From positions 4,776,001-4,840,000 of the forward strand of contig NC_087251.1 of NCBI RefSeq assembly GCF_037042905.1: a stretch of 64,000 nucleotides of DNA, given 5' to 3'. The notes under the pieces are model-generated. The model did no database searches and had not been told where the DNA came from. It saw nothing but the letters and a program-made list of their open reading frames with translations. Source of the DNA: Lytechinus pictus (Eukaryota). Positions within the stretch are counted from its first letter, which is position 1. Each line of letters begins with the position of its first letter. This document shows positions 6,757 through 56,459 of the stretch, piece after piece. Both the position numbers and the translations under genes were made by a program.

Positions 6757-7415
6757 GTAAGATTTCCTTTTTGGTTTTTGCCCATCTTAAGTACAGTTAA
6801 AACATTACTCTCTGCAACTGTTTGTGTTCTGATAAATACACGAACACACAAATTGAAAAACACACCATTCTTTTGAATCACGTTCATCTACTTGCTGTAT
6901 AGGTGTAGAGCCTTTTCACTGTCTTGATTAATTCTTTGCCTGTTTAGACGAAGCATCGCAATGGATAAAACGTCTTGGTTTTCATTCATCATGGCCGCTA
7001 TCAGCAGATAGAAAGTGCCATCGCATCTCGTCGATGTTCCATTTTCCTAATAGAAAAGCGATTTCCGAGCGTACATCACCTATCCTTCCTAACCCCTAGC
7101 GAGTGATTGCCTATCTGCATTAAACGTATTTCCCGGCGTTCTATTTTAATTGCACTTGGAACGAGCGCCCGTGCTAGACTTCTCAAGTTTCACACGCAGA
7201 CGATCTCCGAGTCCAATGTCGAATAAAAACAGCTTCGATCCCAAACCAATCAACTTGATGAAAGTCGAGGGAGATTTTGGAGGAGCTCATTTTAAAATCT
7301 TCTCATAACAACCCCTGTCTGCAATCAGGCCAATTTTCTTTCAATTTCCACTTTACCCTGATATTGGTTTCACTTGTTTTACTGTCTCGTTGTTTTCTCT
7401 TCTTTCTTTTCTCAG

Positions 7416-8018
7416 TGTGATGACTTAAAGACGCAGCTTGAGGAACGTGACGCAGAGTTGAAGCGCGCTCTTCGACGAATCAGCGAACTTGAAAGTCGCG
7501 TGGCGGGAAAATTACATCACGGACATTTCGGGCGTGTAAATGGTAACCACCATACAAGAATGAACCTAGGTCGCTTGGCATTTAAAAACTTAAGACATGG
7601 TGGAAGTGTTGAAAGCAGTGACAATGATTCTTCAAGCGTGTGGGCAAGTTTTGATGCAGAAGACAGTGGTCCGAGGATCCTTATTACACTTTCATCTGAA
7701 GAAAAGTCGGGATCCTTAAACAGCGGGAACGGGAGAACACTAAACGGGAGAACGAGAACTATAACCGTTCCCGGTATTTGCCTGAATGGGGTTATGCAAC
7801 AAGAGCCGTCTGAGTATCAATTGATTGGTTTCGTTGGTAATGGCAATGGTATCTATAGTGATGATGGACTAGAAGAGGAAGCAGCAAGACTTGGAAGAGA
7901 GTTATTATCAGAGAAAAGTGATTTATCATCTCGTAGTTATCTCGATTCCAGTAGGATGTCAGCTGATCTTACTGATGCATCATGTTATAGTGATAACTCA
8001 ATTGACAGTGACTTCTGA
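7416..8018 (+). CDS. CNG channel terminal exon: C-terminal leucine-zipper coiled coil and acidic Ser-rich tail
   Basis: tctttcttttctcag|TGT acceptor; heptads CDDLKTQLEERDAELKRALRRISELESR; 200 codons to TGA at 8016-8018. Confidence 0.85.
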   Translation, partial: CDDLKTQLEERDAELKRALRRISELESRVAGKLHHGHFGRVNGNHHTRMNLGRLAFKNLRHGGSVESSDNDSSSVWASFDAEDSGPRILITLSSEEKSGSLNSGNGRTLNGRTRTITVPGICLNGVMQQEPSEYQLIGFVGNGNGIYSDDGLEEEAARLGRELLSEKSDLSSRSYLDSSRMSADLTDASCYSDNSIDSDF

Positions 8019-11000: not shown

Positions 11001-14000
11001 ACATCTTAAAGATGGAACTTTTGTAAATGAAAAATCCATAGTCGAGTTTTGATGACATAATGAATTGAGGAAGCAGTTGCCAACAAGTAAAAGAAACGCG
11101 TCTCTTTTTGTGAATTGTTCGGCACCCCGGCCTTGCCGATGAGCAAACTGTCGGCGAAAAAAAAACCTTAATTAGTGCACATGTGAAGGTCAGTTAGTCA
11201 TGATATTAAAAATTAAAATTGATTTTTATCACCATCCTCATCACCATGGCCATGACAGCTAATGAATTTTAGTTTGCGTCTTATTTTCTGTTTCAGAGGT
11301 GAACGGGCCTGTGAGGTCGGAGGAATAGAAATTCGAATGTTTAGGTCTAGTATGTCTATTCCAGTTATGATTGGTGATGTGTTTATATCATTAATAGACG
11401 GGAAGAAACAAGAACTTTATTTTTTTGTTTTATCTTCTTCCTTCACTTCCTAGTGCATAAATAAAAGAGAGCTAAACTTTCCTGCAGCTCCTGTACAAGA
11501 AAATCTTCAAATATTGTCTCGATTTGTCGAAGTGAATTCTTGCAAAAATAGCTGGTACATCGAACTTAGGTGTTAATGCGTAGGATGAAGGGAAGGGGTA
11601 TATACGTCGTGTGTTACCAACATTTACTTACTGATACAAACATACTATCGTAATGACAGGTCCTAGAAGCATAAAAATATGATTAAAAAATCGCACGATA
11701 TTTGAAAATGTTCCCAATTTATGATTTTAAATTCTTCAGAACGGTGATTCCCATTCCATATAGCGTAAGAAATTCTAAAATCGGTTCCCTTGTTCATATT
11801 ATTACACGAAAGTGACTCTTTAAGATGTTCAAAGTATAAATAAATTGAGGGAGGCTTGAAATGAGTGGTATCTTCTTTTTAATGGATAACGTTTATCCAA
11901 GCGTTATAATTTCACAAGGATGTGTTCATGTCTTGATCGATGTGTGTTGATTAATCAAATGATTCCGACGAATTCAGATAATTCTATTGATCTTTCCATC
12001 ATAGCCATTCCAACGACTTTTTTTAAAGTCAGTAAGTAGCTATTTCTCATAACGATAAATCGTTCTGATATATCACTTTACAATAGAAAATATGACTATG
12101 TCTACTTAAATACATTGTAATACTTCACTCCCTTACTTTTCCACTATTCGCCACTACTCTAGAATGAAAAAAAAATCAAAGCAATACAGAACTGAATATC
12201 AAGTGTTTACTTTTCAAATGAGCTTAATAAAGGTGCATTATAATATGCTACACTATAGTTTAGGAAAGCACAGCGGCTAGTGAAAGATATCATGCAGAGA
12301 CCCTTGTTCATTTTGTGTTCTATTTTTCGTTTCATCTTTTCTTGTTGGGTATGAAGTGATCATCTACTATTCTTTCTATCTAGGTTTAATCCAAGCCGGT
12401 GGCCTTACTTGACTAACGTGTCAATTGTTAGGTATGAATACCCCCTGATGAGGCCGTTCAATAAAGACACTCCTCACTTTAAAAGGTTCTTCGAGCGAGG
12501 CGCCGCCTTCTTCATCGAAGATCTTCGAAGTGAAAAGAATAAGAAAGAGATTGAGGGAGATATGAAAAGAACATCGTAAAATGGGAGGAGGTGTCATCTG
12601 ACATTATGCGATCTTGACAAAGATAATTAGATGGCGCCCCATTCTACGATTCATCCTACCCACACCAACAATAGATCTTTTCTTCAAGCTCCTTCTAACA
12701 GTACCTCCCCAAATGGGATTTTACTTTAGTTCTTTTAAGTCCACAATGTCCACTACTTATCCAATTAGGCACTCATCCTAATGAACTGACCAACTTGGCT
12801 ATTGTAAAGTCCAGTTCTTACCCAACCCCCTCCAGCCCTGGTCCTCCTGAAGAAATACTTATTTTAGATCGTTGTTTACGCACTGGTTCACGAGATAATA
12901 ATCCTGTCATTCCCTTTTCTCTTTTTTTTTATCCAAATACTGTTTGGTCCCCTCCTTTATATAATGAATTGGTCTTTCAAGTAATCATTACCCTCATGAA
13001 TACCAAGTGTTTATATCACGGAGGAATCTAAACAACTATTACCGGTTTTGATGATTTCCTTAAGCTTTTAACGTTTCTTGTTATTTTGTAGACTTTCCCC
13101 TCCCTGTTCGCTAGCCTTTTGGTTATTTTATACAGTAAAAAACCCCTGGGTATATTAGCCACATAAATACTCGTGAGAAATCGAAACTACTGCATTGAAT
13201 ATAATTATTAGCATAATTGTGGGATCTTAAACCCACAGAGACTCGCTTCATTTGCAACTTACGTCGTAGTCGTTTTGTAAATATATTACATTGGTTCTAT
13301 TTGCAGATATTAGACCATGACATTATACCACCATCGATACAAAATCATTTACATAAATACATGAACATAAATGGAAGAACAATCGCCAAACATTTACAAT
13401 AAAAAATCACTATAAACTGGCCAAGAAGTTATTATATACAGTTATGCTCAAAACTCAGTGAACCCCGCCACGAAATGCACTCCTTCATGCTGAATATTGA
13501 ATGTAAACAACGATACAATGTTCGGCAAGCCCGGTGAAACAAACTTTATTGTATGTACCTAAATTCACAATTAAATATTTTCATTTTCTGGTGCAGTTCA
13601 TTAATATTTGAGCACCACCATAACCACTGTATATTCAAAATGAAAACACTTTCCCTTGATCATTTCCGTGTTTAATCCAGTATGAATGTTACTTTTGAAA
13701 TGTATAGTCATTTTAAAATTGAACCATTTCACTTTGTAAGAGGCAAATTACATTGAGAAGCAGGGGAGACGAAAAATATTTGTTTGTTCGTATTAGCTTG
13801 TATAACATTGTCATGATCTACTCAATCTTCCCCACTGCCAAACATGCCTACAAAAGAGAAAAAACGCCCCAAAGACTGACACGTTTTTACAATTGACACA
13901 CTGTTTGATTCGTTCACAAACACGGAAGCTTAAATCGTATGCATGTTAATTGGTAAAGTTTATTTCGAAGGTACAACAATGATACTGGCCAGGAATCACA

Positions 14001-14050
14001 ATATTACGTTCGTTTCTTTTACACATGTACAATCTACTGTTTCGTCCGTC

Positions 14051-14211
14051 AGGTTCCATGATATTTGCTCCGGCAACAATCGCTCCGCTCTAAATTCCAC
14101 CCTATACCCTACTCTAAACCCACCATAAAACCCTATTACAACAACCTTAACCCTAACCATACATCTTAAGCCCGGAGCAATTATCACCGGAGCAAATATC
14201 TTCTCACTACC
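14051..14211. mobile_element. MITE-like repeat with degenerate TAACCC interior (related copy at ~44686-44830)
   Basis: gatatttgctccgg (14060-14073) / ccggagcaaatatc (14187-14200); the same aggttccatga(t/c)atttgctcc start occurs at 44686. Confidence 0.7.
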
Positions 14212-15214
14212 AGGGTTGGGATGGTGTTGATTTGCAAAGGCCGAGTTGATAGATATGTCTATGCTTAACCTATCATGAAAAAAAGTTTGATAGAATCAAT
14301 AGAAGGTTGGTGCTTTATTCTGAATGATTTCAAAGCGGGAATGTGTATCTTGGCTTAGTGAGTTCATTCAAGAGATTTCAATCTAATTTTGTGCTCGTTA
14401 ATATTATTTGACTCTTTACTTGCCGAAGTAATTCTGAGAGTGTTATTATTATTATTGTGACCATTCTTTCTCCCAATCTTGCTTTCGTTACTTCACAATT
14501 GAAATTGGTTATCAATCTATGAATATTACTTGAGCACTTTAACCATTTAGGCTAACTTCGCTAGTTGATGACGGTGAAAATTAACGACTGTTAAATATAA
14601 TTTAATTTCATGATTGTACGAAGGTTATTATTTAAATGCAAAGTAATATAAATTTTAAATAACATCAAACATTCTAGACCCAAACTTTCTGAAGACGAGA
14701 ACCAGATAGGTGGTATGGTTTTAACTAGTAATATATCCATAGTTGGATAAGGTGTGATAGACATGACAATCATTAAACCTGCTGTCATTCACCCTACTTC
14801 GATTTGATTTTACAGTCAGTCGGCAAGCCCTCAAAAAGTAGCTTCTTTTATCCAAGTGATATTCATGACGAGAGGGTTTTTGCATTGTTAATAAGCTTGG
14901 TGCGGACGATAACACCTCTTTTTATTTGGCCATTGCCGCTCTAAATATTGACCAAATTTCATGTTTTTGGTATCTTTATATATAGAAGAAATATTATTCT
15001 TTTAGGTCATGTGTATGAGGCGCCGAATGTACCAATATTATATAGAACAATTATTTGTTATATAATCATTATTTATTAAATAATAACTATTATTTATATA
15101 TAATTTACATTTTATTTGTAAATAACTACTATTATATAAAATATCATTTCTAATTATTTATATATAATTCCAAGTAATACTTCATTATTTGTAAATAATA
15201 ATAGTTCGACATTC

Positions 15215-15431
15215 CATTATTTATAAATAATGATTATTTGTTTTTCATTATTTATAAATAATGATTATTTGTTTTTCATTATTTACAAATAATGATTATT
15301 TGTTTTTCATTATTTATAAATAATGATTATTTGTTTTTCATTATTTATAAATAATTATTATTTGTTTTTCATTATTTACAAATAATGATTATTTGTTTTT
15401 CATTATTTATAAATAATGATTATTTGTTTTT
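15215..15431 (+). repeat. 31-bp minisatellite x7 (cattatttataaataatgattatttgttttt), left foldback arm
   Basis: Period of 31 counted directly. Confidence 0.92.
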
Positions 15432-18400
15432 CATTATTTATAAATAATTTGTTGAGTTTTCCATTATTTATAAATAATGATTATTTGTTAAATAATGAAA
15501 ACGTCTACTTCATTATTTATAAATAATTTTTTCGAGTGCACCTTTATTCTCATTATTTATAAATAATCATTATTTAATGTTCGAGTTTTCCATTATTTAT
15601 AAATAAAGATTATTTGTTAAATAATGAAATATCTACTTCATTATTTATAAATAATAATTTTGTTTCAATATCCCATTATTTATAAATAATCATTATATAT
15701 AAACAATTTTTACAGTTTGCCATTATATACAAATAATCATTATTTATATACAAATAACCATTATTTATTAAATAATGCCATTATTTATTAAATAATGCCA
15801 TTATTTATTAAATAATGGAAAACTCGCTATAACATGCAAATGTGGGACCGCCCATGATATGAATATTCATGATGCGATTTCCTTTTTCGTGATTTTTCTT
15901 CACAAATTTTTGTCCATTTCCTCTTCATAATGACATTTCTTGAAGCAATTTTCTAGGGATATGGTCTGATTGTAATATTCTTCATTTTCTATATAACTTC
16001 GTCTTCGTAGAAATATCAAAAAGTGTAATTTTATACGATTTTTCCTACAGTTCACAATCCCCATAGGCGCGCGTGTACGGTAGGGACAACCGGTGAATCG
16101 ACGGAGTGCTCTTCATCGAAATACTACGTTGGTTGGTCCCCGGAAGTGGCGGGCGGAATTTAGCCCGAATCCTCGATGGAAGTCGATCAAGTGCATATGA
16201 GCTGAGAGAGTGAAATATCAGTGTACTTGTACAGGCCCTTCTACTTTTTATAAATATTTCTTGTTGCTTTTTTGTTGAGTTAATTTTTCCTGGTGTAGAG
16301 ATAAGTTTCAGTTCTAATAATGCACTTCAAATACATTTTGGAGTGTTTGAGGCGCTTGGGGCGATTTCACCCTGGCCCCAAAATTCTCGCAACGACAATA
16401 CGGGGGCATGATGACCCCTAAATTTTTAAAAACTTATTTTTCTATTGAAAATTATCACAAAATTCACCAAAAGTGTGCACGAAAGCCTTCGTATTTCACT
16501 TTTAAAACTCCAAAAAGTGCCCAAATGACAAGCTTGGTCGCTTCGCTGTGTCGCTTTCAACTTGAGAACGTTTACGCGTCTGCTTCCCCCCCCCCCCCTC
16601 CTCCGAAAGAAATTCTGTATACGGCCATGCTGTAAAGAGCCTGGCACATTGATTTATGTATACTTCATTTTCATTATTTTTATCTCATTATCATCATGGC
16701 CTTACGCAGAATTTTTTCCGGGGGGGGTGGGGGGAGCAGGACGCGCGTAAACTTTCTCATAAAAATCTTGAAAAAGCGAAGCGACCAAGCTTGTCATTTG
16801 AGCTTGGTCGCGTCGCTGTCTCGCTTTCAAGATTTTTTTTGAGAAACTTTACGCGCGTCCTAGCTGCTCCCCCCCCCCCTGGTAAAAATTCTGTGTAAGG
16901 CCATGATGATAATGTGATAAAAATAATGAAAATGAAAAGTACATATTTTAAATCAATGTGCCATATGCTCTTTTGAGCATGGCCGTTCACAGAATTTCTT
17001 TCGGGGGGGTGGGGGCAGATGCGCGTAAACGTTCTCAAGTTGAAAGCGAGACAGCGAAGCGACCAAGCTTGTCATTTGGGCTTGGTCCCGTGGCTGTCTC
17101 GCTTTCAAGATTTTTTTGAGAAAGTTTACGCGCGTCATGCTCCGGCCCCCCTGGAAAAAATTCTGCGTAGGGCCATGTTGATAATGAGATAAAAATAATG
17201 AAAATGAAAGTATACATAAATCAATGTGCCAGGCTCTTTAGAGCATGGCCATATACAGAATTTCTTTCTTCGGAGGGGGGGGGGGAAGCAGACGCGTAAA
17301 CGTTCTCAAGTTGAAAGCGACACAGCGAAGCGACCAAGCTTGTCATTTGGGCACTTTTTGGAGTTTTAAAAGTGAAATACGAAGGCTTTCATGCACACTT
17401 TTGGTGAATTTTGTGATAATTTTCAATAGAAAAATAAGTTTTTAAAAATTTAGGGGTCATCATGCCCCCGTATTGTCGTTGCGAGCATTTTGGGGCCAGG
17501 GTGAAATCGCCCCAAACGCCTCAAACAGACACTCCAAAATGTATTTGAAGTGCATTATTAGAACTGAAACTTATCTCTACACCAGGAAAAATTAACTTAA
17601 CAAAAAAAGCAACAAGAAATAAAGTAGAAGGGCCTGTACAAGTACACTGATATTTCACTCTCTCAGCTCATATGCACTTGATCGACTTCCATCGAGGATT
17701 CGGGCTGAATTCCGCCCGCCACTTCCGGGGACCAACCAACGTAGTATTTCGATGAAGAGCACTCCGTCGATTCACCGGTTGTCCCTACCGTACACGCGCG
17801 CCTATGGGGATTGTGAACTGTAGGAAAAATCGTATAAAATTACACTTTTTGATATTTCTACGAAGACGAAGTTATATAGAAAATGAAGAATATTACAATC
17901 AGACCATATCCCTAGAAAATTGCTTCAAGAAATGTCATTATGAAGAGGAAATGGACAAACATTTGTGAAGAAAAATCACGAAAAAGGAAATCGCAACATG
18001 AATATTCATATCATGGGCGGTCCCACATTTGCATGTTATAGCGAGTTTTCCATTATTTAATAAATAATGGCATTATTTAATAAATAATGGCATTATTTAA
18101 TAAATAATGGTTATTTGTATATAAATAATGATTATTTGTATATAATGGCAAACTGTAAAAATTGTTTATAAATAATGATTATTTATAAATAATGGGATAT
18201 TGAAACAAAATTATTAATTATAAATAATGAAGTAGATATTTCATTATTTAACAAATAATCTTTATTTATAAATAATGGAAAACTCGAACATTAAATAATG
18301 ATTATTTATAAATAATGAGAATAAAGGTGCACTCGAAAAAATTATTTATAAATAATGAAGTAGACGTTTTCATTATTTAACAAATAATCATTATTTATAA

Positions 18401-18436
18401 ATAATGGAAAACTCAACAAATTATTTATAAATAATG

Positions 18437-18746
18437 AAAAACAAATAATCATTATTTATAAATAATGAAAAACAAATAATCATTATTTATAAATAATGAA
18501 AAACAAATAATCATTATTTATAAATAATGAAAAACAAATAATCATTATTTATAAATAATGAAAAACAAATAATCATTATTTGTAAATAATGAAAAACAAA
18601 TAATCATTATTTATAAATAATGAAAAACAAATAATCATTATTTGTAAATAATGAAAAACAAATAATCATTATTTATAAATAATGAAAAACAAATAATCAT
18701 TATTTATAAATAATGAAAAACAAATAATCATTATTTATAAATAATG
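18437..18746 (-). repeat. 31-bp minisatellite x10, right foldback arm
   Basis: Reverse complement of the left-arm unit, 10 copies. Confidence 0.92.
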
Positions 18747-18966
18747 GAATGTCGAACTATTATTATTTACAAATAATGAAGTATTACTTGGAATTATATA
18801 TAAATAATTAGAAATGATATTTTATATAATAGTAGTTATTTACAAATAAAATGTAAATTATATATAAATAATAGTTATTATTTAATAAATAATGATTATA
18901 TAACAAATAATTGTTCTATATAATATTGGTACATTCGGCGCCTCATACATGTGTCTGGATTTTGAA

Positions 18967-19531
18967 AGGGATGGTCTAGGCTGAAAATATTTATATCTTA
19001 GTACATAGAGTAGAATTCACTGAACAAAATGCCAAAAATTTCATCAAAATCGGATAACAAATAATAAAGTTATTGAAGTTTAAAGTTTAGCAATATTTTG
19101 TGAAAACAGTGGACTGGTGATGTCACATCTCCACTTTCCGCTTTCTTATGTTATAACATAAAATCATAATTTTTTCATTATTTCATACTTGTGTGAATAA
19201 TATGTCTCCCTTATAGTGAACTAAGTTGCAGCAATAAATATCTAATGCACTAAATCAGTTGTCAATACAATTTGTCTAGTTCTTGGAGGAAAAATTTGAA
19301 TTGTCCTAATTTCATATGATAAAATACAAAAGAACAAGTGGGGATGTGACATCATCAGCCCACCTAATGAATATTTATGACGACTGTTCTCACAAAATAT
19401 TGCTTAACTTTAAAATTCAATAACTTTGTTATTTGTCATCCGATTTTGGTGAAATTTTCGGCATTTTGCTCAGTGAATTCTATACTATTTATTAAGCTAT
19501 AAATACTTTCAGCCCAGCCCAGCCCAGACCA
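18967..19531. mobile_element. Kolobok-like MITE with long imperfect TIRs, right end damaged
   Basis: agggatggtctaggctgaaa...agaattcactgaacaaaatgcc mirrored by ggcattttgctcagtgaattct...tttcagccc. Confidence 0.7.
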
Positions 19532-20992
19532 GATCTAAAACATAAAACAAAATAATTACACCTTACACCTTTAAAACGATTGTGTAACATGGATGAAACT
19601 TTTGATCTAAAACATAAAACAAAATAATTATTTTCATGCAACAAAACTTGTTGTTTTTACACCTAATTTTTGGTTGGGCCCAAATTTTTTTAAGATTATG
19701 ATGAAGCTGAAGATCTAAGCTTTAATATGATATAATTTGTATAAGAAGAGGGTTCTTAGATGGGTCAGCAGCCAGCTTTTCATAGGCCAAGTACATTTAG
19801 CACTTTAAAAACAAGAATACTGCGCTCTGATTGGTCATATACCCTTTTTACACAGGATTTTCTTAGCCCCGGACTATCGCTACCCCGTACTATCCATAAT
19901 CCCGTACTATTTTTTTTCCTTTTCACACATGCCAAATTGTTATTGCTAACCCCGGATAAGGAATGCTTGCTTTTCACACACGAAACTCGCTAACCCCGGA
20001 TTATAGTGGTAGCTCATTCACTCGTACCCTTTTTACACACGCTAAAATTTCCTTAAAGTATACATCCGAAGAATCAAAAGTATTTTATAATGACTTTATG
20101 TGGTCATCATTGTAAAGGGGAAGTATTACTAATCAGATATATAACTTCACTTTTCAAAATAGTGATCAGAGTTTGCAGAAATCAGCTCTCAAAAATGATT
20201 TATTTTCATGCCATATTTCTGCCTTCCACCGGTCCTCTTGCGAGCTCCAGCTGAGTGACGTCACACAATGAGCAGTGAGCAGCTGAGCTGACAGCAGCCC
20301 ATTGGAGACGATCTTTCCAATCAGCGTTTTTTGCTCTTAGAATTGTTTATTGCTCTTAATATTGGTCTTGTTATATAGATAAAAGTTTGAATTTACTGAA
20401 CAGTGAAAAAAAAGTGCACATTTAACGTATTTTGGTAACCGATATTTAGCTTAGAATTTTTCTTTTTCTTTCAAGAAATATATGTGAATAAACAAAGCAT
20501 ATTTTCACGTAGAAATCACACTTGCGTCACATTAATATTATAATCAATATAAAGCATAGACATTCTTCTTTATGACTGAACAAAAATTATGAAATTTCAT
20601 TAAGTAGCAAAGTCAGGAACCACAAAAAAAACACGGCAATATCCATCGCGAAATGACTGAAATTGCAGTTGAATTGCCGAAGCATTATTAGGCAACAGCG
20701 GCGAGCGGACTTTATTTCATATATCTTAAAAATGACTCTCCGGCAGGGCAATGGTCTGTGGCCAAATGCGATGGCCATTGTTTTGTCATGTGCGAGGACC
20801 CTGGTTCGAAACTCGGATTTTTTTTTTATTCCTTCCCCGTCCCTACCCATCTTTTTTTCTCTTTTTATTTTCTTGTGAAATTCTATTCAGACCTGTATTT
20901 ATCAAATCTTGCTTCTTAATTGTTGCTTTTGATTTTCAAGTTCTTGATTAGATTATTTCTACTCTTATTTGGGATGGGAGGGGTAGAGTTAA

Positions 20993-22632: not shown

Positions 22633-22756
22633 CGGTGCTCTCTGAGTCTCTGTGTCATTACAAAGATTGCATTTATCTTCATTGTTGAAGGCATTACGCA
22701 TGCATATATGCAGCAACACTCTAATCAGAAAGAAACACCAGACTCTAATTTTAGCC

Positions 22757-22936
22757 CACCCAAGGGTTCATTGCATGCCGCCGCGCACAGAAAATTCAAG
22801 CCATAGAAGTCGTGTGTTGTGGACCCAAGAAGTGAGATCCCAGCACGCGCGACCCACTAGTTAGAAATCCACTGCCAAACGCGGTTCGTGGTGCGAGGTT
22901 AGTATACTAATACTAACCTCGCAATACGTGTGAGTG
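22757..22936. mobile_element. 180-bp element, copy 1 (9-bp TSD attttagcc/attttggcc)
   Basis: CAC...GTG ends; near-identical inverted copy at 23004-23183. Confidence 0.8.
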
Positions 22937-23003
22937 ATTTTGGCCAGGAATCAGGGTAATCACTGCTGAAAATTTGTCTGGCTTCATGACATCGGCATCA
23001 TGG

Positions 23004-23183
23004 CACTCACACGTATTGCGAGGTTAGTATTAGTATACTAACCTCGCACCACGAACCGCGTTTGGCAGTGGATTTCTAACTAGTGGGTCGCGCGTGCTGG
23101 GATCTCACTTCTTGGGTCCACAACACACGACTTCTATGGCTTGATTTTTCTGTGCGCGGCGGCATGTAATGAACCCTTGGGTG
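23004..23183. mobile_element. 180-bp element, copy 2 (9-bp TSD gcatcatgg)
   Basis: gcatcatgg at 22995-23003 and 23184-23192. Confidence 0.85.
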
Positions 23184-23449
23184 GCATCATGGTGATATAA
23201 TTCTGTGTATAATAAAAACTTAAACATTCCTCTGAAACAGCAGATTTTCAGCCATGGTCCATACCAGTGCTAAATAATTTAATCGCCTGCCCGAGTCCTG
23301 ACCAGTTTTAGAAATCTGACTGAAGAAAAAATCTGCTGGAATTGTGCAAAAACATTATTTCTAAAATAAAGACTTTTTAATTTTAATAGTAGTTATGCCA
23401 AAATGCATGATTCTAAACTTATATCAGATCTGTATCTGTCATCTGACCT

Positions 23450-30130: not shown

Positions 30131-30595
30131 GTACAGGTTGGTGCCGTTTTATGTGTGGTGTTCATTGTAGATGGAAGGTGGTATTATGAGAGAAACTTGT
30201 TTGCGAATTGAATCTTTCTACTTTGATACCAACAAAGTGGGAATGAATTTGTGAATAGACACCACCTATCGCTGCTTTCTCTTCAAAACGTCTGCCCATC
30301 TCGTTACAAATATTGTTTTTTTCATTCGACAAAGTTGAGAGGAAGGTTTTTATAAAGAAAGTCGTAGGGTCGCTGTCACTGACGTATTTACCACTTTTCA
30401 CTGGTTTTTCTTGGGGTATATCTAAAAAGTCAATGAGGGTTTATATTGCTCTCCTTTATGTCTGATGATCATTTTTAACTTGGAGTTCATCGTCTTCACT
30501 CAATGCTGAGAGAATATATGGTCTCTTATATATCCTATCTCTCCTAACTAGCGAAAGTAAAAAGTCAGGATTAGCGAGTCGATTTATTGTTCAGG

Positions 30596-31202
30596 ATGGC
30601 TCTCTTAAACTCGGCTTATTCACTCCAGCAGGGGTTCTACGCCGCCGGGGTCTTCCCGGCGCCACTCTCCAACTATTCGGGCTTTTCTTTAGTCGGGCTA
30701 AGAATGCAGCCACCGTTTGGAGCTCTATCCTCGACTACAATGGGCCAGCTTACGACTTTCCCCGGAGGATCAGCGGCAACGATCGCTGCTGCTGCCTCGT
30801 TCAGCATGGAGAACCTACGCGTGGCGCAAGGTTTGAGACCATTACCTAGCAGTGGTGCTGTCTCTCCGGGCAGCCTTGGCGATAAAAGACCCGGTGTTAC
30901 CGACTTCAGCATAGAAGGTATCTTGGGTAAGAAGGACGGGGATTCGTCGAGCCGTCTAGAAAGTATCAGAGCCAAGCATAAACTAACATTACACAACAAA
31001 AATGGAGTCTCTTTTCAAGAGAAACGTTTCCATTCACCACGAGAATGCATTGATGATAGTCAAGAAGCGACGTCACCCAAACTGATTGATGATGATGAAG
31101 GAGGTTGTCAAGACTCAAAGACAGATAATGATTCTTCAGATAACCCAATGACAAGGTTTTCATGGCTTCAATGTACAAGATATAAACCACCGAGACTTCC
31201 AC
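30596..31202 (+). CDS. Msxlx: Msx-like (Msxlx family) homeobox gene, exon 1
   Basis: ATG at 30596; eh1/Groucho motif TDFSIEGILG; pre-homeodomain motif FSWLQCTRYKPPRLP; CCAC|gtgagt donor (phase 1). Confidence 0.88.
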
Positions 31203-34200
31203 GTGAGTATCATTGTTATCATTTTACAATGTATATTTAAAGGAGAATAATAATTATTTCAAAAAGAAGTTTGCGTGGAATGGATTGGGTTATTTATTGG
31301 GATTGAACTAACTGACTAACCCTATGCACATATTCGCATTGTAAAAAAAATGATTGCAATAGCATATACCAATTCAAAATTTACATTATTTATACACTTT
31401 TAAAGAGGGGATTATTGGCCTTTAACGTGTGCGACATTTGATTTATTTATTCCAAGTTTATACCTATATTAAGATCTGTCGACGCAGTCATGTAAATACA
31501 TGCAGTAAACATGGTTTATCGGAAAACTTGTGTATTAATCTATAACATCATCATAAGCCACCATTTATGTTTGTTAATTTCTAAATTCAGTCATGAAATA
31601 TTATACCTAAACCATGTTGATTAAAAATGAGGGTGCTATGATATCAATACTTCAACAAATAACTCTTTTCAGGTGTTCTGTCAGTCTTGTCAACGTTTTC
31701 TACATCCTGTTTTTCATATATTCATGAGAATATTATTCTTTTAATAAACTCTTTAATTGGTAATACATCATTTAGTTTAATTTCTAGACATTCTTTTTAG
31801 ATTCCTTGACTGTTTTACAAGTCCTCATCATATGAAATGTTACTTGAAGTACACTTGTCTACCACATTTTTCACGATATACATCTATCGGTATTTGTTTC
31901 CAATACATGGTGTTTAATTTATGATGAATTACATACATCATGTACATGGTATATGTCTTTAAGAGAACTTGTGAACGTGTATGTAGACCAAAGATTTATT
32001 TAACTTATGTAAGAATTTAAGACTTATTTAAGAATTTAAGAATACCCAGTATTGATAATTTTGAGAATTGCCCAGTGCAATAAAATAAATATGATTACGT
32101 TAATTACTCAGTAGGTATTCTCATCGCTTATGTTAAATGTATTTATTTTCTATTTTATATACTACAAGCATGGGAGCAAATGGTGGTTTATTGAAAAAAA
32201 ATGACAATTACAATATTAAATGGATGACCAAACTGACCAATGTATTGATAAGATTAATCAAAACCCAATATTAAGTAATCTTGAAATGTCAAATCCTACA
32301 TGTTCTAGTGATAGGCAAAAGCGACAGAGTTTTTATTGAGACAACACGCATTTAGAATTAACAAGAAAAAAAAAACAATTGCAAAATTATATAAATAATT
32401 CCTAATTATGGCAATATTCAATGCGGATGTTAAATGTTTAAATAAAACATTCAGCAACCGTATAACCGTTCAAAATACTAATATCATTAACAAAATTTGA
32501 GTATGAATATTTACCATTGTATACGTGAGCAATTTGAATATGAAATGCTTTAGATTTATTTTTCAATCTCTTATGTTTTTTTTCGTAATTTAAAGCATGT
32601 AATCATTCGGTATATCAATACAACCCAGCACCCTTAAGAGGGTTCGATGTTTGTCCCTTATTTGGAACCTTTAGCATGTTTAGAGGCTCCCCAAAAGGTT
32701 CGAAATTACCTTAAACAACCACTTTTGATAATGTTTCATGCTCTTTTTTAGAGTCGTTTAAAATTCTTGAGCACGTAAAGAACCTTTTTGGGAACCCTTT
32801 TTCTCGAGGGGCTCCAAATACGGGACTAAAGGAATTTAGTTCCTATACCTGTTTTTTGTCTAAGAGTCCAATACGCCACTCGCGTAAAGTCATTATCATT
32901 ATTCCATATCAAAACTACATGTATCCTGATCCAATTCTATTTTTATGAAGAACAATTTTCGAAAAGTATAAAGTAAATATTAAATACGGTACATGTTCTA
33001 TTTTTAAGACATGCAGATATTGCTGGCTGATGTGAAGATCAATAATTATTTAAATAATAATAAAAAATAATAATGGATATCACAAAGTTGATTTGTAATT
33101 ATGTTATTAGTCGATAACCAAGAAACTACTTTAACATGTTCCAACTTCAAAAGATGTGTTTTATCAACGTGAGTTTTTTTTAATGATTTTAATAGCAAAA
33201 GTTGCATTTCAATTATTGTTTCTGATAAAAGAAGAATTTCTATAGATTTTAAGTTGCTTTATTTATAAGAACCATCAAATTACTTTCTTCGGGCCACATT
33301 TTATACCCGCTGTAAACATTTCATCTTTATTAGACTTCATTTGACATTTCCATTGACTTTTAATTAATCATGCTTAAAAACATTTTTTAAAGATTTCACA
33401 AAGTACTAAGTTATAACGTTGCATACTTCACACTAGGCTTTTAAAATATCTGTGTCCATTGATTAATTTGATGTTAACCATTCGTCTCTTTTCGTCACAT
33501 CGGCAAGGATGAAAAGAAAGTAAGAAGTTTACTGACGAGCTTCTACTAATTGATTTTGATGAGAAGCAAGTTTATGGCATTATTTTACAAATTACAGTGT
33601 AAATAAATGTATGTAAAATTGAAATATGCAACTATCATGACTCTGTTTTCTTTGAGCTATATTTATATTTGCAAGATAAAATAACAACAACAATAATAAC
33701 AATACCTTCTTTATAATAGAACAATAATTGTTACGAAATCAAATAGCTGACAAAATGTAGATGAAATAATTTTGTTATATATACTTTGATGTATATGTTT
33801 AAAATCGCTCGTGCAACGACAAGTCTACATCACTATCTACATGCATTATGTTTGATATAATCCAGTCTATCAATCATCTTGAGTACTTAAATAAGTACAA
33901 ACACAATCTTCGATTAAATTGTTTGTTTGTATATCCTGTAGTAACAAAAACAGATATGCTTAATTCTTTGGATATTGTTATTTTGAACGAAAATGACCAT
34001 AAGTGTCAAAATTACGAATATTACAATATCATTTCTCTTCTCAAATCATCAAACAATCTGTCTAAAACCAGAAGAACAAAGAACAAACAAATTTCAAATC
34101 GAATCATATCGTAGTATGTGGCATAATCCTATATACTGCATACATAATATAGCCTATGCTTTGAAACTGCAAATGGTACTATTGCGATATCATTGTAACT

Positions 34201-36583
34201 CTGCTCATTTAATTGATTTGCATGACAAAAATGTCCTTGATTTAAAGCAACTGGCTTTTGTTGGGTATGGACAGGCTATTCTATGCTTCAAATAAACTAC
34301 ATTGGGTCGTCAAGCTTGCTGTTAGACGACCTATGTCAAATGTCTTTTGAAAGGAATTCATGTGGAAGAACCAACAACCGAACGTAAATAGCATAAGTTC
34401 TTCTGAAAAAAGGGAAAAGTTAATGTTTGGTTATGATAACAGAAGAATCATTGCTCATCCATCATGTCTATGGCTGAACTATGTTTTGAAAAAAAATGTC
34501 TGGCGTTTCATTTCTCTCGAAAATGATCGAATGCCAACCTTTGTTTGCGAGTACGTAGGTCCGTTAAATAGAATTTGATAATTTTTCAGAAATTCAGAAC
34601 ATAAATAATAAAACAATTATGGGAATTTTGATTTCAAAAATTGAAAACTATACTTGAGAGGGATTTGTTTATAAAATCTTTATATACATCCATAACCCAT
34701 TGCTGTATAACTTACATTAAACATAAATATCACAATGATGTAGGCTCCAAGATTATTCATACATTCATAATACTATAATAGAAGCTTCATTGGCACGATA
34801 TGTCTACGGATAATTAGAAATACATTTGATATAAAAAATGCATCTCAATTCGAAATGATTTTGCTTCATAATTAATGGTCCCAACATACCTTTAGATATA
34901 TGAAAATGTAGAAAACTTTTATCACTAAAATTTAATTGTTTTGAACGTAAAGTCCAGGTACAATTGAATCTTTAATTTTAATTATGAACATCATTATCAC
35001 ATATGTGTTTGGAGTATAATGTTATATGTCTGTATTTTACTTAAGAAAACTCTTACCAAACCTTAAAACCATAAAGTATCCAATGCTAACTGCATGATCT
35101 AGGCCGACACATCTTAACTTTGAAACATTTTTAAAGTGTTTTAAAGCATGATGACAGATGGAATGTTTGCATCATTTGCATATAGTGAGTGATATTAATT
35201 GCAAAACTGGTAGATTATTCCAAAAATTCACAATTATTTATAATGATCATCTTAATAATCCTGACAAGCAAAACCAGCTATAATTTTAATAAGTTCGTTG
35301 TTAACATACAGGTCAATCAGGACTATCAGGTGAGGTAGTGGCCTTTATTAATCATGCATGAAGCTCAGGCTATTAAATATACTTTGATAAATTATTAAGA
35401 AAAAATGAGGTGATTGTTTTCAGAGTCTTTATAAGATCATTTGTTTCCTACTTTAGAAAAAGGAAAAAGCGTCCCTTGACAACCCAAACATATCGCTGCT
35501 GGCGTGGGGTAGTTTATTTACGTGATGTCTCCTAACTCTCCTTTCATCGTACGTAGACCAAGCCAGTAGACAAGGCGGGGCGCCTCCTCAACCACTCGTA
35601 TAATAATCCATGTTTGTCGTATGTGCACGCGTGCATTCATTAATTGGGACAGCGTGTCTGGTTTGTTTTCTCTTATCACTTGTTACACTAACAATCAACT
35701 AAATTGCCCCTAAAGTTGTGATCATTATCATAGCTTCGGTCAACTTTTCAAATTGGATTGACGTCTCTATTGGCTCTGACAGGAATGATGAGGATTGCTG
35801 AGATTAATGGTGCAAAGTACCGTTTCCTGATTTATAACAAAGATGTTTGTTTGTATTTGTGTATTTAGATCTGCACTTGAAAAAAAAAACAATGATAGTT
35901 TACTTGATATAAATTTAGAATTTATCAATACGTTTGTATATGTATTATGAACTTATTATACACCTCTTTTGATGTTGTTGGCTGATTGTACTAAATAAGT
36001 CAAGTACCCTACCAACATGACCAATAACCATGGAAGCCGAAATATTTCTACAAACAAAGTGCGCGTAAAAACGAATGACTCGATCACACTGTAGGTGCAA
36101 CATTTATCATTGGACATTATTATTTTTTTCATTATGGCTATTAGTATAATTTGATAGCATAACATCTATATGATAATAATACACGAGATTTGTACAGCGC
36201 ATTTTCCACAGATAAATGATTTAAAAAAATCTTTTAGAATACAAATTGTACTTGCCTAATTAAAAATATGCATGAAAGAAAATGCATTTTTGTTAAATTA
36301 ATATTTATCTGCTTCATCTTGTAGATTCATAATCATTTTTTTTTTTGGGGGGGTGGTTGTACTGTCGTTTTATGAGCTTTTCCTACATAACAAGTTAAAC
36401 AAAAATAGTGTTAGGCATATTTGACGATAAAAAAAGTAACCATAACATGAAGATTATCTACTAACCAATACCTATTCATGACATTTTAAAACGCGTAACT
36501 TACGAATTCATCGTGACACTCTGCAAAACTGAAGCTATACCAATATAATTATGTTCGATTCCTTTTCTTTTGAACTGTTGCAG

Positions 36584-36753
36584 GTACAAAGAGAAAGGAC
36601 GGTGCGAAGAAACGTAAACTGGGCCGTAACCCTCGCGTACCTTTCTCACCAACACAAGTAGCTACGCTGGAACAGAAATTTCGCTGTACACACTATCTGA
36701 GCAGTATTGATGTTGCTGAACTGTCAGCTGCCCTTAACCTCTCCGAGAATCGG
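36584..36753 (+). CDS. Msxlx: Msxlx exon 2: homeodomain residues 1-44
   Basis: ttgcag|GT acceptor, CGG|gttagt donor. Translation RTKRKDGAKKRKLGRNPRVPFSPTQVATLEQKFRCTHYLSSIDVAELSAALNLSENR. Not in the ORF track. Confidence 0.92.
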
Positions 36754-38691
36754 GTTAGTCTATTAGATTTATACATCTAAATCATTTTCCTGTTCAATTT
36801 TTATTTTATCATAATCGACACTCGTTTTAAGTTGAACCACAATGTTATATCTTCAGTGAATATACTAGCTGTCGTCGATCCCGTCGTCATTGATGGCCAT
36901 ATCTCTTTATCATTTTCATGATTAAATTGAAGTCTTTCACACTAACTAATTAGTGTTCAATTTATGTTTCATCGGAACTATTCATTATCCCGCTGACTTC
37001 TGGAACCCTTGGAGAAATCATACATGAATCCAAAGAATTCAGGAGTCAATGAGTTTAAAAGCTTTACTGCATCCAAAAGTTTGACTTCAAAGAAAATAAA
37101 ACTTCAACAAACTCAACATTATACGGTCACTTTATTAACCCAACTAAAACAATTGCTAAACGATGTTTACATGGAGAGATGAATAAAATGTATATATGAT
37201 TTTGAAAATCATTTGAAAGAAAATGGAAACAAAGACTAGTTGACAACAAAACATTTGTAACAAACATCGATTCACTATTAAGGCTGATTACACGCGATCG
37301 AAATATATATAAATAATTTTTGTCTTTCTGTATTGGTTCATGTATATATCCCTCAACAGACAGACAGATACATTAAAATTAATCTATTGAGATTAGTTAA
37401 CGATGAATCTTACAGAGAAAACCTATTGTTTCCTATGATAGTAGGTAGAATCATTAAGACCACAAACGTCATCCATTCTTCAAGAAACCAAAAAGTATAT
37501 ATAAAAAAATTACCTGTGGCTTTTTGGTCATAAGTAAACTCACTCGTATCCACATGAGAAACACTGAATATCTTTCATAGTGAGATGTAACAATACTGTG
37601 ACTCATTTAGTTTTATTCTTAAATCGAAGAAACGGTCAATGAAATTATTCCTAGAAAGTTTCTTTTCTGATACATATTCAATAGAACGGCTGTAGATTAA
37701 AGTTTCATTATCTATATAAAGTGACATAATCACCCAAGTAAAAAGTAAAAGTTTTAAACTGTTTTTTTTTTTCTGGGAGAGGTTTCATCATGGATGCTAT
37801 AGTATTGCCTATCCAGGGAAAAAAGTACTTTGTTATGTCTTCGAATGTAAAACGGATTAAACTTATAAAAAAACACGCTATCATCTTTTGATTGTAAAAC
37901 ACGGAGAACGATTTATATTTGAACTAAATTTTATTTTAGTCGTTCATTATAGTTCCATTGTTTGCCAGCAAATATGGTAATCAATCCAATCGAAAACAAA
38001 ATAGTAAAAATAAACTTTTTCTGGGATTTGCTGCTCCCTTCTCTTTTATCGTACATTGGAAACAGTTACAAATAACATAAAGCTTAAATATGACTGAGAA
38101 AGTGACGAAGACTGAGTAAATACCCGAGTGATATCGGTCAGTACTTCATTTTTATCTTAATGTAGACCAAGACTTATGAAAAGCTTGACAAAACTCGTAC
38201 AAAAATTGTCTGAAATTGTTTGTTTATCAGTTTTTCTTCACGTTTTTTGACAGCCAATAAACCCATTTCTTGAAACTGTCATGTAGAAGAGGAAGTAAAG
38301 TGACATGAAGCTCATCAAAAACCCTTGTCTTGGTATTAACCCAGATTTATTGCCAGACATGGTGTGTCCGGAAATAGATTATGAACATTGCATGGTTTTT
38401 ATCAACTTGATTACCAAAACGCCTCAATATTTCAGAATGCCAGGGAAAATATTTGCTTATACAGTCATGTAGCATTCTTCGTCCAATTTCACTGAAATGT
38501 ATAACTTTATAGTTTTATGATTTGAATTTTCTTTTACTAAGTATTTTTAAATAAAAAATTGAATTGAACAAAAAATGATAATTGAATTCAACTGTATCTA
38601 TGATGTAATATGATGTTGCCTAGCGCACGGAAGAACAGTAACCATGGCAATCATGGTAATGTGTTAATAAAATGAAGTAGGATATCCGCCA

Positions 38692-38723
38692 CTATATATA
38701 TATATATATATACATACACACAC

Positions 38724-38756
<33 letters not shown>
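38692..38756. repeat. (TA)n/(CA)n microsatellite
   Basis: Seen directly. Confidence 0.95.
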
Positions 38757-38804
38757 ATTGTGATGAGCAAGGACCTAAACATTGCGTGGGTGCTTCAGTG
38801 AGTA

Positions 38805-39069
38805 ATATATTGGCGAAGAAGCTCAAAAAGCATTGAAGCTAGAGACGTAGCCTGTATTTCTTCAACTTGTATTAGTACAAGCTTTCGGCGATTTAGTTAG
38901 GCCTTCTAACCCACACACAAACCCACACATCACCCACCTGGTTAAGCACTTACAGTAAAACTTGAAGATACCTGAAGAAGGCCTAACTAAATGGCCGAAA
39001 GCTTGTACTAATAAAAGTTGAAGAAATACAGGCTACGTCTCTAGCTTCAATGCTTTTTGAGCTTCTTCG

Positions 39070-39078
<9 letters not shown>
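38805..39078 (+). mobile_element. Penelope-like element terminal remnant in inverted configuration, abutting (TA)n
   Basis: 103-bp arms 38805-38907 / 38976-39078; CTGAAGAAGGCC...GGCCGAAAGCTT...AATAAA. Confidence 0.72.
38966..39008 (+). ncRNA. Minimal type I hammerhead-ribozyme-like motif
   Basis: CUGAAGA (38972-38978), stem II GGCC/GGCC around UAACUAAAU, GAAA (38997-39000), palindromic AAGCUU. Stem I is weak (about 3 bp). Confidence 0.55.
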
Positions 39079-39129
<51 letters not shown>

Positions 39130-39165
39130 CATTTATATATATATATATATATTCATATATATACA
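39073..39165. repeat. (TA)n microsatellite
   Basis: Seen directly. Confidence 0.95.
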
Positions 39166-40316
39166 TAGATATAAACGCCTATAAAACAAACAGTATTAAA
39201 ATCTATCAAGAAAAATCAATTAGAAAGATTTGTACATAATTTGAGGAATGAAAATAATCAATGATTATCTTTTTTTTTTCTACACCGGTTATAATTAGAT
39301 ATTTTATGATGATAAATGTCAATCTTTTTTGTAATTTCATTTAGTAAATTTGATATAAGAGAACGATATCACAGGTGTTTTTTTATTTATTTATTTCTCA
39401 TAGAAGATGTTCCTTCACCATTCCATTTGAAATTATTCATCTTATTCTTTTAATCATTACATGTTTTTACTGGAAATGGATAGAAAGGTATACGTGCCTG
39501 ACAGGTGCGTTTATGCAACGGATTTCATGATAAGGTTGTTCTGATATTGATTTTAGAATAGATATGAAAATTACACGTTTCATTACGAGCCACTGCAATG
39601 CAATTTACCCGCTGAAAATTCGAAATCAATATTATCCATTCTGACTCCGGCGGCCCCTTCGGCGCTGTAGAGCACTGCCAATCTTCATTCGAAAAGTTAA
39701 TTCAATTTCTTACTCATTTATTAATCGTTCTCCTTCCCTCTCTCTCATCTATTCTCTATGTCTCTTCCTTTCTACATGTTCTAAGACTGTTAGCCATTTG
39801 AAATCATTTTCTCCTGTACGTTTATTTTCTTACTCGAACCATTTGAATCAACATAAGATTAGTTCAGACGTCAAAAGGCCACCATGTTATCTACTGCCTG
39901 GCCCTCATTAGCTTGCGTCGCTTAATTATCCAATAACGATAACACCTCGTCACAGCGGTGATCGGACGAGCACATTCGTCTAATTAAAACACAGCAATGT
40001 TTATTAACTTCTTTCCTACTGCCCCTTTTATTATTCATCACATATATCTCGTGATTAACACACAGTGATCAAGAAGTAATGTTATCGTTCCAATTACTAG
40101 TCGAGATATCGTGCTGTTTGGCAATGTCCACTTTTATTTCCTGTCAGAGTTGCGATTGATTAATCAGTTGTTCACCTCTGAACTATGGATATTCAGTTTG
40201 ATTACTCCATTGAATTTGGTCTGGTTTAGAAAAATGATGACGCTCAACTGAGCCCAACATGGATATCTTCAATAAAACTACTACTACTAGTAGTAAATGA
40301 TTATAATAAACAGCCT

Positions 40317-40351
<35 letters not shown>

Positions 40352-40442
40352 TAATTATAATAATAATGATAATAATAATAAAAAATAATGATGATGATGA
40401 TAATGAGGAGGAGGAGGATGATAAAGATAATAATAATAACAA
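40317..40442. repeat. (AAT)n/(GAT)n/(GAG)n microsatellite
   Basis: Seen directly; explains the poly-Ile and poly-Tyr ORFs. Confidence 0.95.
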
Positions 40443-41439
40443 TTCCCGCCAATTTTTTTTGTACGCTTGCCGCTCCGGTTTTAAACCTTTAATCTTTAAT
40501 AGATTTAATTGAACAAAGTGAATCATTTTATCATTAATTCACTAATTTGATTGCAAACGTGATAGAATATTCATCAAGATCAATGAAGAGATTCTAATTT
40601 TGAAATTGCGCCATCTTGCGGTACCTAAGTCAATTTCAAACTTTTTTAAGTGACAGGAATGAGTTTACCTATAGATTTTCGAAAATCTGATAATGATCCT
40701 TCGAGTTTTAACGCATTGATTCTTCCCATCACATATTCAAAGTTCTCATTGACAAGCAAATGCGAGGTTGATGACATTTTCTTGCCTTTAGCATTGATTT
40801 CCGATAATCGTTGTGAAATTGTTTCATTTAAAGCATTCATCATATTTCCACTCTGCTAGCGCCGCAGTTTAAACAGATGCAAACGAAACCTTTATGTACA
40901 ATGACTTTAATGAAAACTATTCATGGAAAATAAAACATGTAAGGCTACTGAAATACCCTCACCTAAAACTATTGCAATGTACAATTCTCACAAACGAAAT
41001 ATCGAGTGACGCAACAAGATGTTTTGTTCACATTTTTCTTTCATTGGGATGACGAAAATGTATCGGTTAAGTGCCTTTATCGACAGATAAAGAGAAAGTA
41101 GAGATAAGTGACTTCAAAAAATGGATTTATCAACCCAGTGTTTCTTATTGATCGACAAATGAACAGGGAAATCATTGTTGCTCTTTTCCCCTAATTCCAC
41201 GTATTTTATGAAAATATATACCGATTTTTTTTTCTATTATAACACTCATTTCGACATCGCAAGATCACAACATGAAATATATTATAACTTTTTGTTTGTT
41301 TTACAAAAAATAGGAATTTCTTATTTCGTGTGTTATTCGAATTTCCTCATTCGAGTGTTTGCAAAGGGGTCTAAATAAAAAGGAAAATGCTTTGAACGAA
41401 TAATCATACTTTTGTTACCTTGTTGTTTTCATTATCCAG

Positions 41440-41910
41440 GTCAAGATTTGGTTTCAAAATCGGCGAGCACGTGAGCGACGTGATAAAGAAGGTATCGATC
41501 AAAAACTACCGTCATCATCGACATCAAATCTCCTACCTCCATCTCCCGCTTCACTCTCTCATTCTCCTCACACACCCATCAGTCCCCTTTCGTCATCGTC
41601 GCCATCCTCGTCTTCATCCACCTCATCAATGATCGCGATATCGCCATTTGCTTCTCCACCTTCGACGTCAATGACTACGGGGATGATGCCTCGTTTATCG
41701 TCACCGCGATCATCAATCGATGCTGCATCTCCATCAAATTTCTCTCATGTTTCGTCATCGCCCATGTCATCGACGTCGCATCATAGCGGGATGATGACGG
41801 AGAATTCTCAGATTTCGTTGTGTCAACCACCGCTCCATCACCTCTCTGTTTCCTCGGCTGATCAAGGCACGGCATCTGCGTTCACTCCTGTATCTCCCTA
41901 CTTGAAATAG
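41440..41910 (+). CDS. Msxlx: Msxlx exon 3: recognition helix and Ser/Pro-rich C-terminus
   Basis: tccag|GTC acceptor; VKIWFQNRRARERR; in frame with ORF 41629-41910 ending SAFTPVSPYLK-TAG. Spliced CDS is 1248 nt = 415 aa. Confidence 0.92.
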   Translation, partial: VKIWFQNRRARERRDKEGIDQKLPSSSTSNLLPPSPASLSHSPHTPISPLSSSSPSSSSSTSSMIAISPFASPPSTSMTTGMMPRLSSPRSSIDAASPSNFSHVSSSPMSSTSHHSGMMTENSQISLCQPPLHHLSVSSADQGTASAFTPVSPYLK

Positions 41911-53848: not shown

Positions 53849-54031
53849 TCATTTGACGATGAGAATTTGATCCAATGGTTTGCGTTTAAAATCAGGAACG
53901 GTAGCATCTTTAGCAGGGTAGCCAACGGGTAGAAGTAGTAGCACCTTTTCATTAACTGGTCTGTGTAGTAGAGCACGCAGTTTGGGTCCAGCATTCATCG
54001 GGGTGCTTGTTAGAGTAACCAAACCAGCATT
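53849..54031 (-). CDS. IYD: IYD terminal coding exon
   Basis: tccag|AAT acceptor; NAGLVTLTSTPMNAGPKLRALLHRPVNEKVLLLLPVGYPAKDATVPDFKRKPLDQILIVK-stop. Confidence 0.95.
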   Translation of the reverse strand, partial: NAGLVTLTSTPMNAGPKLRALLHRPVNEKVLLLLPVGYPAKDATVPDFKRKPLDQILIVK

Positions 54032-56327: not shown

Positions 56328-56426
56328 TGACTACTACTACTACTAATGAAGATGATGGTAATAATAATGATAATAACAACAATAATAGTAATAATAATAA
56401 TAGTAATGATGATGATGATAATAATA

Positions 56427-56459
<33 letters not shown>

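Follow-up and report, generated by a model that had tools for sequence, protein, structure and literature searches.

The near-palindromic element at positions 15014-18947 of a 64,000-nucleotide stretch of the Lytechinus pictus genome (assembly GCF_037042905.1, contig NC_087251.1, positions 4,776,001 to 4,840,000 of the forward strand; the whole stretch is called the window) is best explained as a real, non-autonomous foldback transposon of the cut-and-paste kind, most likely moved in trans by an IS3EU/GingerRoot transposase; the overall probability of this explanation is put at about 0.7. The element is 3934 bp long and 92% mirrored, ends in TAT..ATA within a 6-bp target-site duplication (TSD), and retains in its centre a strand-switch junction from which the origin of its arms can be approached. 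A more specific proposal is advanced tentatively: a young IS3EU/GingerRoot family would transpose the 3.9-kb near-palindrome as a whole, the palindrome having arisen by fold-back in a captured self-inverted array.

Ends of the element and target-site duplication

The direct repeat CATGTG is found at 15008-15013 and 18948-18953, on either side of the near-total palindrome, as an earlier sequence-only reading of this DNA had described; at the base composition of the window the chance of a 6-bp match between the flanks is 4e-4. The left terminus reads TATGAGGCG and the right terminus is the reverse complement of TATGAGGCG. In the window alone, three nested pairs of symmetric ends (15014/18947, 15013/18948 and 15012/18949) give direct repeats of 6, 4 and 2 bp, respectively; the ends 15014/18947 are compatible with a 6-bp repeat only, and a direct repeat longer than 6 bp is absent at all nine symmetric end positions tried. 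Within the window BLASTN finds no further copy of the element, and the terminal 15-mer, with three mismatches allowed, has two matches there, both of them the element's own ends.

The choice between these ends comes from copies elsewhere. Contigs of public sequencing runs (X1, X3, X6 and X8) were aligned to 14000-15200 at 85% likeness; the comparison reaches 15014-15200 of the element, that is, its left end only, and 18 of the 24 runs listed cover part of 14000-20000, half or more being covered in none. In X3, 18 contigs continue leftward of 15014 into sequence unlike the window (median 255 letters, agreement 0.42), which is the pattern of a dispersed family with many different flanks; X1 record 7 is identical to the window throughout 15014-15200, after an unlike flank whose final letter is A in place of the window's G. 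Because these copies depart from the reference exactly at 15014, the TAT..ATA termini with a 6-bp TSD, already favoured from the sequence, are considered very probable over the 4- and 2-bp versions.

Organization of the arms

Alignment of 15014-16600 with 18947-17271 gives 1565 matches, 14 substitutions and indels of 93, 8, 1 and 4 bp; the mirror runs on to 16775/17088, for totals of 1723 matches, 25 substitutions and 8 gaps. The arms are 1.76-1.86 kb long, 83% of the element is mirrored at about 99% identity, and no difference separates the arms over 15014-15210. The fraction of G and C changes by layer, from 0.41 in the terminal 27 bp to 0.12-0.16 in the repeat zone at 15041-15820, 0.37-0.39 in the unique inner domain and 0.46 in the centre; this profile and the repeat map bear out the layered arms of the earlier reading, with repeats outside, a unique domain inside and a distinct centre (Table 1). 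The terminal 27 bp are presumed to be the recognition end for the transposase. The 31-bp unit of the minisatellite carries a perfect 16-bp palindromic core, which occurs in 24 exact copies within the element and nowhere else in the window; full units number 7 in the left arm and 10 in the right, which together with the substitutions and indels agrees with the arm differences noted in the earlier reading.

The palindromic core also contains two overlapping 7-mers of the type RYAAAYA, which we take to be the forkhead consensus; such 7-mers occur at 113 sites in 15041-15820 and 18040-18920, or 68 per kb, versus 3.7 per kb elsewhere. Their number is explained by tandem amplification of an AT-rich unit and is not evidence of regulation.

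Long palindromes are a known class of assembly artefact, and a fold-back (missed-adapter) long read could in principle have produced a structure of this kind, the occupied junction being spanned by none of the 32 contig pieces listed, of 3135. Such a read is, however, a very improbable source: both ends coincide with the family terminus in independent contigs and are accompanied by the 6-bp duplication, the unrelated outer flanks join as an empty site, the 25 substitutions and 8 gaps between the arms include three whole 31-bp units, and the centre is asymmetric. The earlier argument that the arm differences oppose a read-foldback artefact is thereby upheld, and that the element is real can be held with near certainty.

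Table 1. Coordinates of the element, its layers and its target (positions in the window)
Feature	Position	Strand	Remark
Older high-copy host repeat, target of the insertion, outside the element	14813..15013	.	depth, loose ends
Left target-site duplication CATGTG	15008..15013	.	terminus set at 15014 by other copies
Whole element, TAT..ATA ends	15014..18947	.	3934 bp, 92% mirror
GC-richer terminal 27 bp of left terminal inverted repeat	15014..15040	+	GC 0.41 vs 0.12 next to it
AT-rich subterminal zone, degenerate palindromic cores	15041..15211	+	
Left 31-bp minisatellite, 7 full units, 16-bp palindromic core in each	15215..15431	+	
Irregular core-bearing repeats, spacing 17-64 bp	15432..15820	+	
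Left unique inner domain, predicted non-coding	15821..16518	+	
Unit U1, inverted copy of U3, closes left arm	16519..16773	-	unit alignment
Strand-switch junction within shared 16-nt word	16773..16775	.	
Unmirrored 312-bp spacer: end of lost unit plus U2	16776..17087	+	
Unit U2, self-inverted	16801-17081	+	inside spacer
Unit U3, tandem partner of U2	17080..17352	+	
Right unique inner domain	17353..18039	-	
Right 31-bp minisatellite, 10 full units	18437..18746	-	
Right terminal 27 bp, exact reverse complement of left	18921..18947	-	
Right target-site duplication CATGTG	18948..18953	.	

The centre and the strand-switch junction

The centre is an array of three units of about 270 bp each in the order rc(U), U, U, where rc denotes the reverse complement; every unit is built from two inverted halves that are 83-89% alike and enclose a spacer. 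Further copies of these self-inverted units are absent from the window, and no TSDs of their own were identified. A central array, whose units the earlier reading had called MITEs, is present; it is asymmetric and includes an unmirrored spacer of 312 bp, and its units are at most candidates for MITEs in the sense of an independent high-copy family with TIRs and a TSD of its own. U2 and U3 are 92.7% alike with 11 gaps (7.3% divergence). The three-way alignment of the units has 30 variable columns, at 18 of which U1 groups with U3, at six U1 with U2 and at five U2 with U3, the remaining column having three states; because U1 groups with U3 at 18 of the 30, U1 is the mirror of U3. Similarity to the U3 mirror stops at 16773, and from 16775 the sequence follows the forward array; at this switch a 16-nt word is common to both templates (17093-17108 inverted; 17040-17055), and it is 6 nt shorter in the product. 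The grouping of U1 with U3 and the shared word at the switch both support the earlier suggestion that one end had been mirrored.

Origin and age of the mirror

In the proposed route, an ancestral end consisting of the terminal inverted repeat (TIR), minisatellite, inner domain and tandem self-inverted units would have broken within the array, in a unit upstream of U2. The 3' end would then have turned back on itself, with priming at the shared 16-nt word in the inverted half of U3, and copying out to the terminus would have yielded a palindrome with two like ends and the 312-bp spacer. Arm-to-arm conversion may later have made the outer 1.58 kb alike again, stopping at the poly-C tract near 16596, and the number of 31-bp units would have changed by slippage; an IS3EU-type transposase would have recognised both ends and inserted the copy through a 6-bp staggered cut, with the palindromic cores perhaps serving as extra transposase binding sites. 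Fold-back after a break is proposed because the 312-bp spacer is bounded by short inverted sequences; a single-copy spacer with such boundaries is the signature of fold-back in the account given in PMC3907307. That fold-back priming, and not conversion, made the mirror is slightly favoured.

The main competitor is an extension of the TIR of the type described for Galileo, in which a broken end is repaired, once or repeatedly, from the other end of the same or another copy and the conversion tract exceeds the old TIR in length. It is a serious candidate that falls somewhat short of even odds: PMC3573991 sets out this route (TIR1-F1-F1-TIR2) and reports that TIRs are longest among the non-autonomous copies, and a divergence step at 16596 requires a second, conversion-like event under any model. 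Set against it, the switch falls in a 16-nt word common to the inverted halves of adjacent units, and the spacer left behind is short, both of which would be expected of fold-back priming; had the mirror grown inward step by step, its innermost sequence should be the best matched, whereas it is the worst. Fold-back priming is given a slight preference and no more because a conversion resolved at the same homology would yield the same product.

The two parts of the mirror differ strongly in divergence. In the outer arms (15014-16595) 11/1582 sites differ (0.7%), plus four indels, whereas in the inner mirror (16596-16775) 14/179 sites differ (7.8%), ten times the value of the outer arms (Fisher p 1.3e-8); the inner value resembles the 7.3% that separates U2 from U3. 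Because the inner 179 bp are so much more diverged, the mirror is considered old and the outer arms later re-homogenised, a process which appears from the position of the step to have reached the poly-C tract. Two signs of youth, the intact TSD and a copy elsewhere with 187 nt identical, make it most likely that the mirror also predates the present insertion. The sequence-only reading had described a recent non-autonomous IS3EU-type element formed from a mirrored end; the mirroring, the ends and the 6-bp TSD stand, while the mirroring itself is not recent.

A palindrome private to this locus, in which a short-TIR element was inserted and one end was afterwards overwritten so that the 3.9-kb mirror never transposed, would account for the fact that no second full-length copy is seen among the contigs compared over 15014-15200 or in the window. 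This order of events is unlikely, as it sits poorly with an old inner mirror (7.8% diverged) beside signs of a young insertion in the intact TSD and the 187-nt identical copy.

Superfamily assignment

According to PMC10045372, TA..TA ends are invariable in complete IS3EU families and 6-bp TSDs are usual, and GingerRoot elements, which form one lineage with IS3EU, have 6-bp TSDs and mostly TA..TA ends (PMC10045372, PMC6839031); these sources, as far as their descriptions of termini go, agree with the earlier statement that TAY..RTA ends and 6-bp TSDs characterise IS3EU. The present element shares with both groups its TA..TA (TAY..RTA) ends, 6-bp TSD and terminal inverted repeats, and differs in being without a transposase and in having a minisatellite inside its arms; the absent transposase, in this lineage an IS3/IS481-related DDD/E enzyme, is as expected for a non-autonomous derivative. 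The group is reported from aquatic animals (PMC10045372, PMC6839031, PMC12730594), and IS3EU is annotated in another sea-urchin genome (PMC11316814). Membership in IS3EU/GingerRoot is therefore regarded as probable, with the ends and the TSD as its basis.

Another superfamily is improbable. Read from the window alone, G..C ends with a 4-bp ATGT duplication, which the sequence-only reading had offered as its alternative, and TGT..ACA Ginger-like ends with a 2-bp duplication both fit, and 6-bp TSDs are also made by Polintons, from which the element might then derive; copies elsewhere, however, depart at 15014 and not at 15013 or 15012, which disfavours the first two, and the AG ends of Polintons and TG..CA ends of Ginger are both unlike TAT..ATA. 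PMC6839031 gives Polintons (Polinton/Maverick) 6-bp TSDs with ends starting AG, and Ginger1/Ginger2 TG..CA ends with 4-6-bp TSDs; here the terminus begins TAT, and a TG..CA reading gives a 2-bp repeat only. The foldback elements placed with Mutator, Tetris and Tm1, are set apart by TSDs of 8-10 bp versus 6 bp here.

Copies elsewhere, the empty site and the host repeat

Summed contig depth over the terminal bins, relative to the single-copy flank, is 37-195 times in X3, 7-67 times in X6 and 1-19 times in X8; these depths suggest tens of ends, and the figure is not a copy number. Against the single-copy flank, X3 shows 19 differences and X8 shows 16 over about 280 sites. Their family copies also depart from the window at 15144 (29 contigs in X3), a position at which X1 agrees with it; X3 and X8 thus appear to come from diverged animals, and the subfamily of the element looks young.

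The sequence-only reading had called for an empty allele, and an empty-site-like contig exists. X1 record 4 aligns over 14829-15014 (12 other letters, 2 gaps) and continues with 19 loose letters that match the right flank at 18955-18973 at 15/19 and the element at 6/19; of the roughly 128,000 window positions, 3 score as high as 15/19. X3 record 12 and X6 record 22 likewise stop at 15014 with further letters beyond. The contig is 93% alike to the left flank within a high-copy repeat, and because the left flank from 14813 is a repeat of very high copy number, X1 record 4 is probably an empty site in a paralogue of that host repeat and not the orthologous allele; even so, right-flank sequence follows a single copy of the target in it. 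Positions 14205-14819 are uncovered in X1, which therefore cannot serve to confirm this allele.

The host repeat reaches a summed depth of 238,567 at 14820-14860 in X3, versus about 81 in the single-copy flank, with numerous loose contig ends before 14813. Its boundary at 14813 reads TA then CAGT, presumably a Tc1/mariner-like end; the other end of the repeat is absent from the joined flanks up to 21500.

Within the terminal region, one X3 contig switches strand at a joint 15063-15200 (depth 69.8, shorter side 50 letters), which hints weakly at a far shorter hairpin derivative within the family. A second X3 joint, 15199 to 15182, was rejected as a rearrangement, being only the 31-bp array read on the other strand. 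Outside the sea urchin, a match to the terminal pattern at one metagenome locus extends over 20 bp only in a gene-dense, unrelated contig, and five viral-contig loci matching the terminal 16-mer have no further similarity; both were dismissed as chance.

Points against the foldback transposon

Several observations weigh against an IS3EU/GingerRoot-mobilised element born by fold-back. At the junction there is a net loss of 6 nt inside the shared word, and repeated conversion alone would also leave a step in divergence. Among the rows listed, six for X6 and X8, no departure at 15014 is present, and X6 record 23 begins at 15015; departures at 15013 or 15012 could exist beyond the rows listed (538 more). 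The occupied junction is bridged by 0 of the 32 contig pieces mentioned above. The empty-site contig is probably a paralogue, and the last seven of its loose letters overlap the neighbouring hairpin repeat, where a chance match is possible; the first 13 match at 11. The 6-bp TSD is demonstrated on this single copy, and a transposase-bearing relative with the same terminus has not been seen, no genome-wide search having been made. GingerRoot TIRs are described in PMC6839031 as 100-150 bp long, versus arms of well over a kilobase here. Finally, the terminus reads TATGA, whereas fungal IS3EU elements of Pucciniales have TAYGG..CCRTA ends, all 15 of the consensus rows compared from PMC12730594 starting TAYGG; TAYGG is a feature of the fungal families and lies outside the superfamily definition in PMC10045372.

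Coding capacity

The longest stop-to-stop frame in 15700-18200 has 104 codons, and none of eight internal frames scanned with Pfam passes the curated cut-off; among these frames no coding capacity was found, and the element is non-autonomous. Two weak Pfam matches (E 0.028 and 0.097) fall below the cut-off and were rejected, as was the Rfam family mir-1789 on the central hairpin, at 30.5 bits against a gathering score of 88.

Genomic surroundings

The element appears to be intergenic, lying about 7 kb past an exon at 7362-8018 and 11.6 kb before a frame at 30575. The former probably belongs to a gene for a cyclic-nucleotide-binding protein with exons at 238-844 and 7362-8018 (+) and a PF00027 domain at 238-420 (E 2.4e-8), which by its motif we take to be a CNG-type channel; the frame at 7362-8018 may be the last exon of this gene, and its protein-atlas leads are only coiled-coil, with scores below 0.9. 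The latter opens a homeobox gene at 30575-41910 (+) with at least three exons and PF00046 at 36592-36756 and from 41404, presumably Msx-like. Exons at 53849-57113 (-) have weak nitroreductase matches and are assumed here to resemble iodotyrosine deiodinase.

Hairpin and repeat sequences are found on both sides. A 558-bp hairpin repeat (18968-19525), with 143-bp arms that are 88% alike, begins 15 bp beyond the right end of the element; short tandem repeats disturb the hairpin's own right end. At 14052-14204 there is a small high-copy repeat, preceded by numerous loose contig ends and reaching a summed depth of 24,046 in X3; it contains a short inverted repeat, 14060-14087 / 14173-14200. Hairpin elements also occupy 22756-23184 (181-bp arms, 99% alike, 67-bp spacer) and 38805-39078, the latter inside TA repeats (103-bp arms, 98% alike).

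Comparison with other foldback systems and significance

The TU foldback elements of sea urchins may be similar in their modular arms, as the earlier reading proposed. A 3.9-kb near-perfect palindrome should be a fragile site prone to hairpin or cruciform formation, here some 11.6 kb upstream of a homeobox gene. The TIRs of the element are long and modular, tandem repeats making up the outer domain and non-repetitive sequence the inner one, which is how PMC4079207 defines foldback elements; the element is flanked by a TSD, no coding capacity was found, and its terminal 187 nt are dispersed. Tetris of Drosophila virilis (PMC4079207) and Tm1 of Meloidogyne (PMC3169594), as their structural descriptions have them, are alike in their long modular TIRs, non-autonomous nature and non-coding middle, and in a flanking domain, a tandem-repeat outer domain differing in number between arms and an inner domain. 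Both are placed with Mutator in these sources, Tetris with an 8-10-bp TSD and Tm1 with a 9-bp TSD; the present element differs in its TA..TA ends and 6-bp TSD, and its middle is a 312-bp self-inverted spacer only.

The Galileo 2RT copies of Drosophila mojavensis are similar in that their TIRs have been lengthened by internal sequence and by changes in tandem repeats, with the longest TIRs in gene-less copies and unequal repeat numbers between ends in the copies that PMC3573991 describes. They differ in belonging to the P superfamily, with a 7-bp TSD and TIRs of up to about 1.26 kb in that description, whereas the mirror here nearly reaches the centre. Fold-back inverted duplications (PMC3907307) share the single-copy spacer and the short inverted boundary sequences; the cases that source presents are chromosome-scale, non-mobile and human, and here the same arrangement lies between transposon ends. 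Because long TIRs arise repeatedly and convergently in unrelated superfamilies (PMC3573991), the architecture will be familiar to specialists.

IS3EU is present in Repbase, and its structure and function are characterised as largely unexplored in PMC11934779; a published report of a foldback-form IS3EU element was not found in a literature search whose coverage excluded most subscription journals and Repbase Reports. A copy with fixed ends and a TSD offers a starting point in the search for a transposase partner, and comparison of the preserved junction across copies can test whether foldback arms originate by fold-back priming or by conversion. If the proposal for the whole near-palindrome is true, IS3EU would join the superfamilies that give rise to foldback elements, and the founding junction would be preserved at base resolution.

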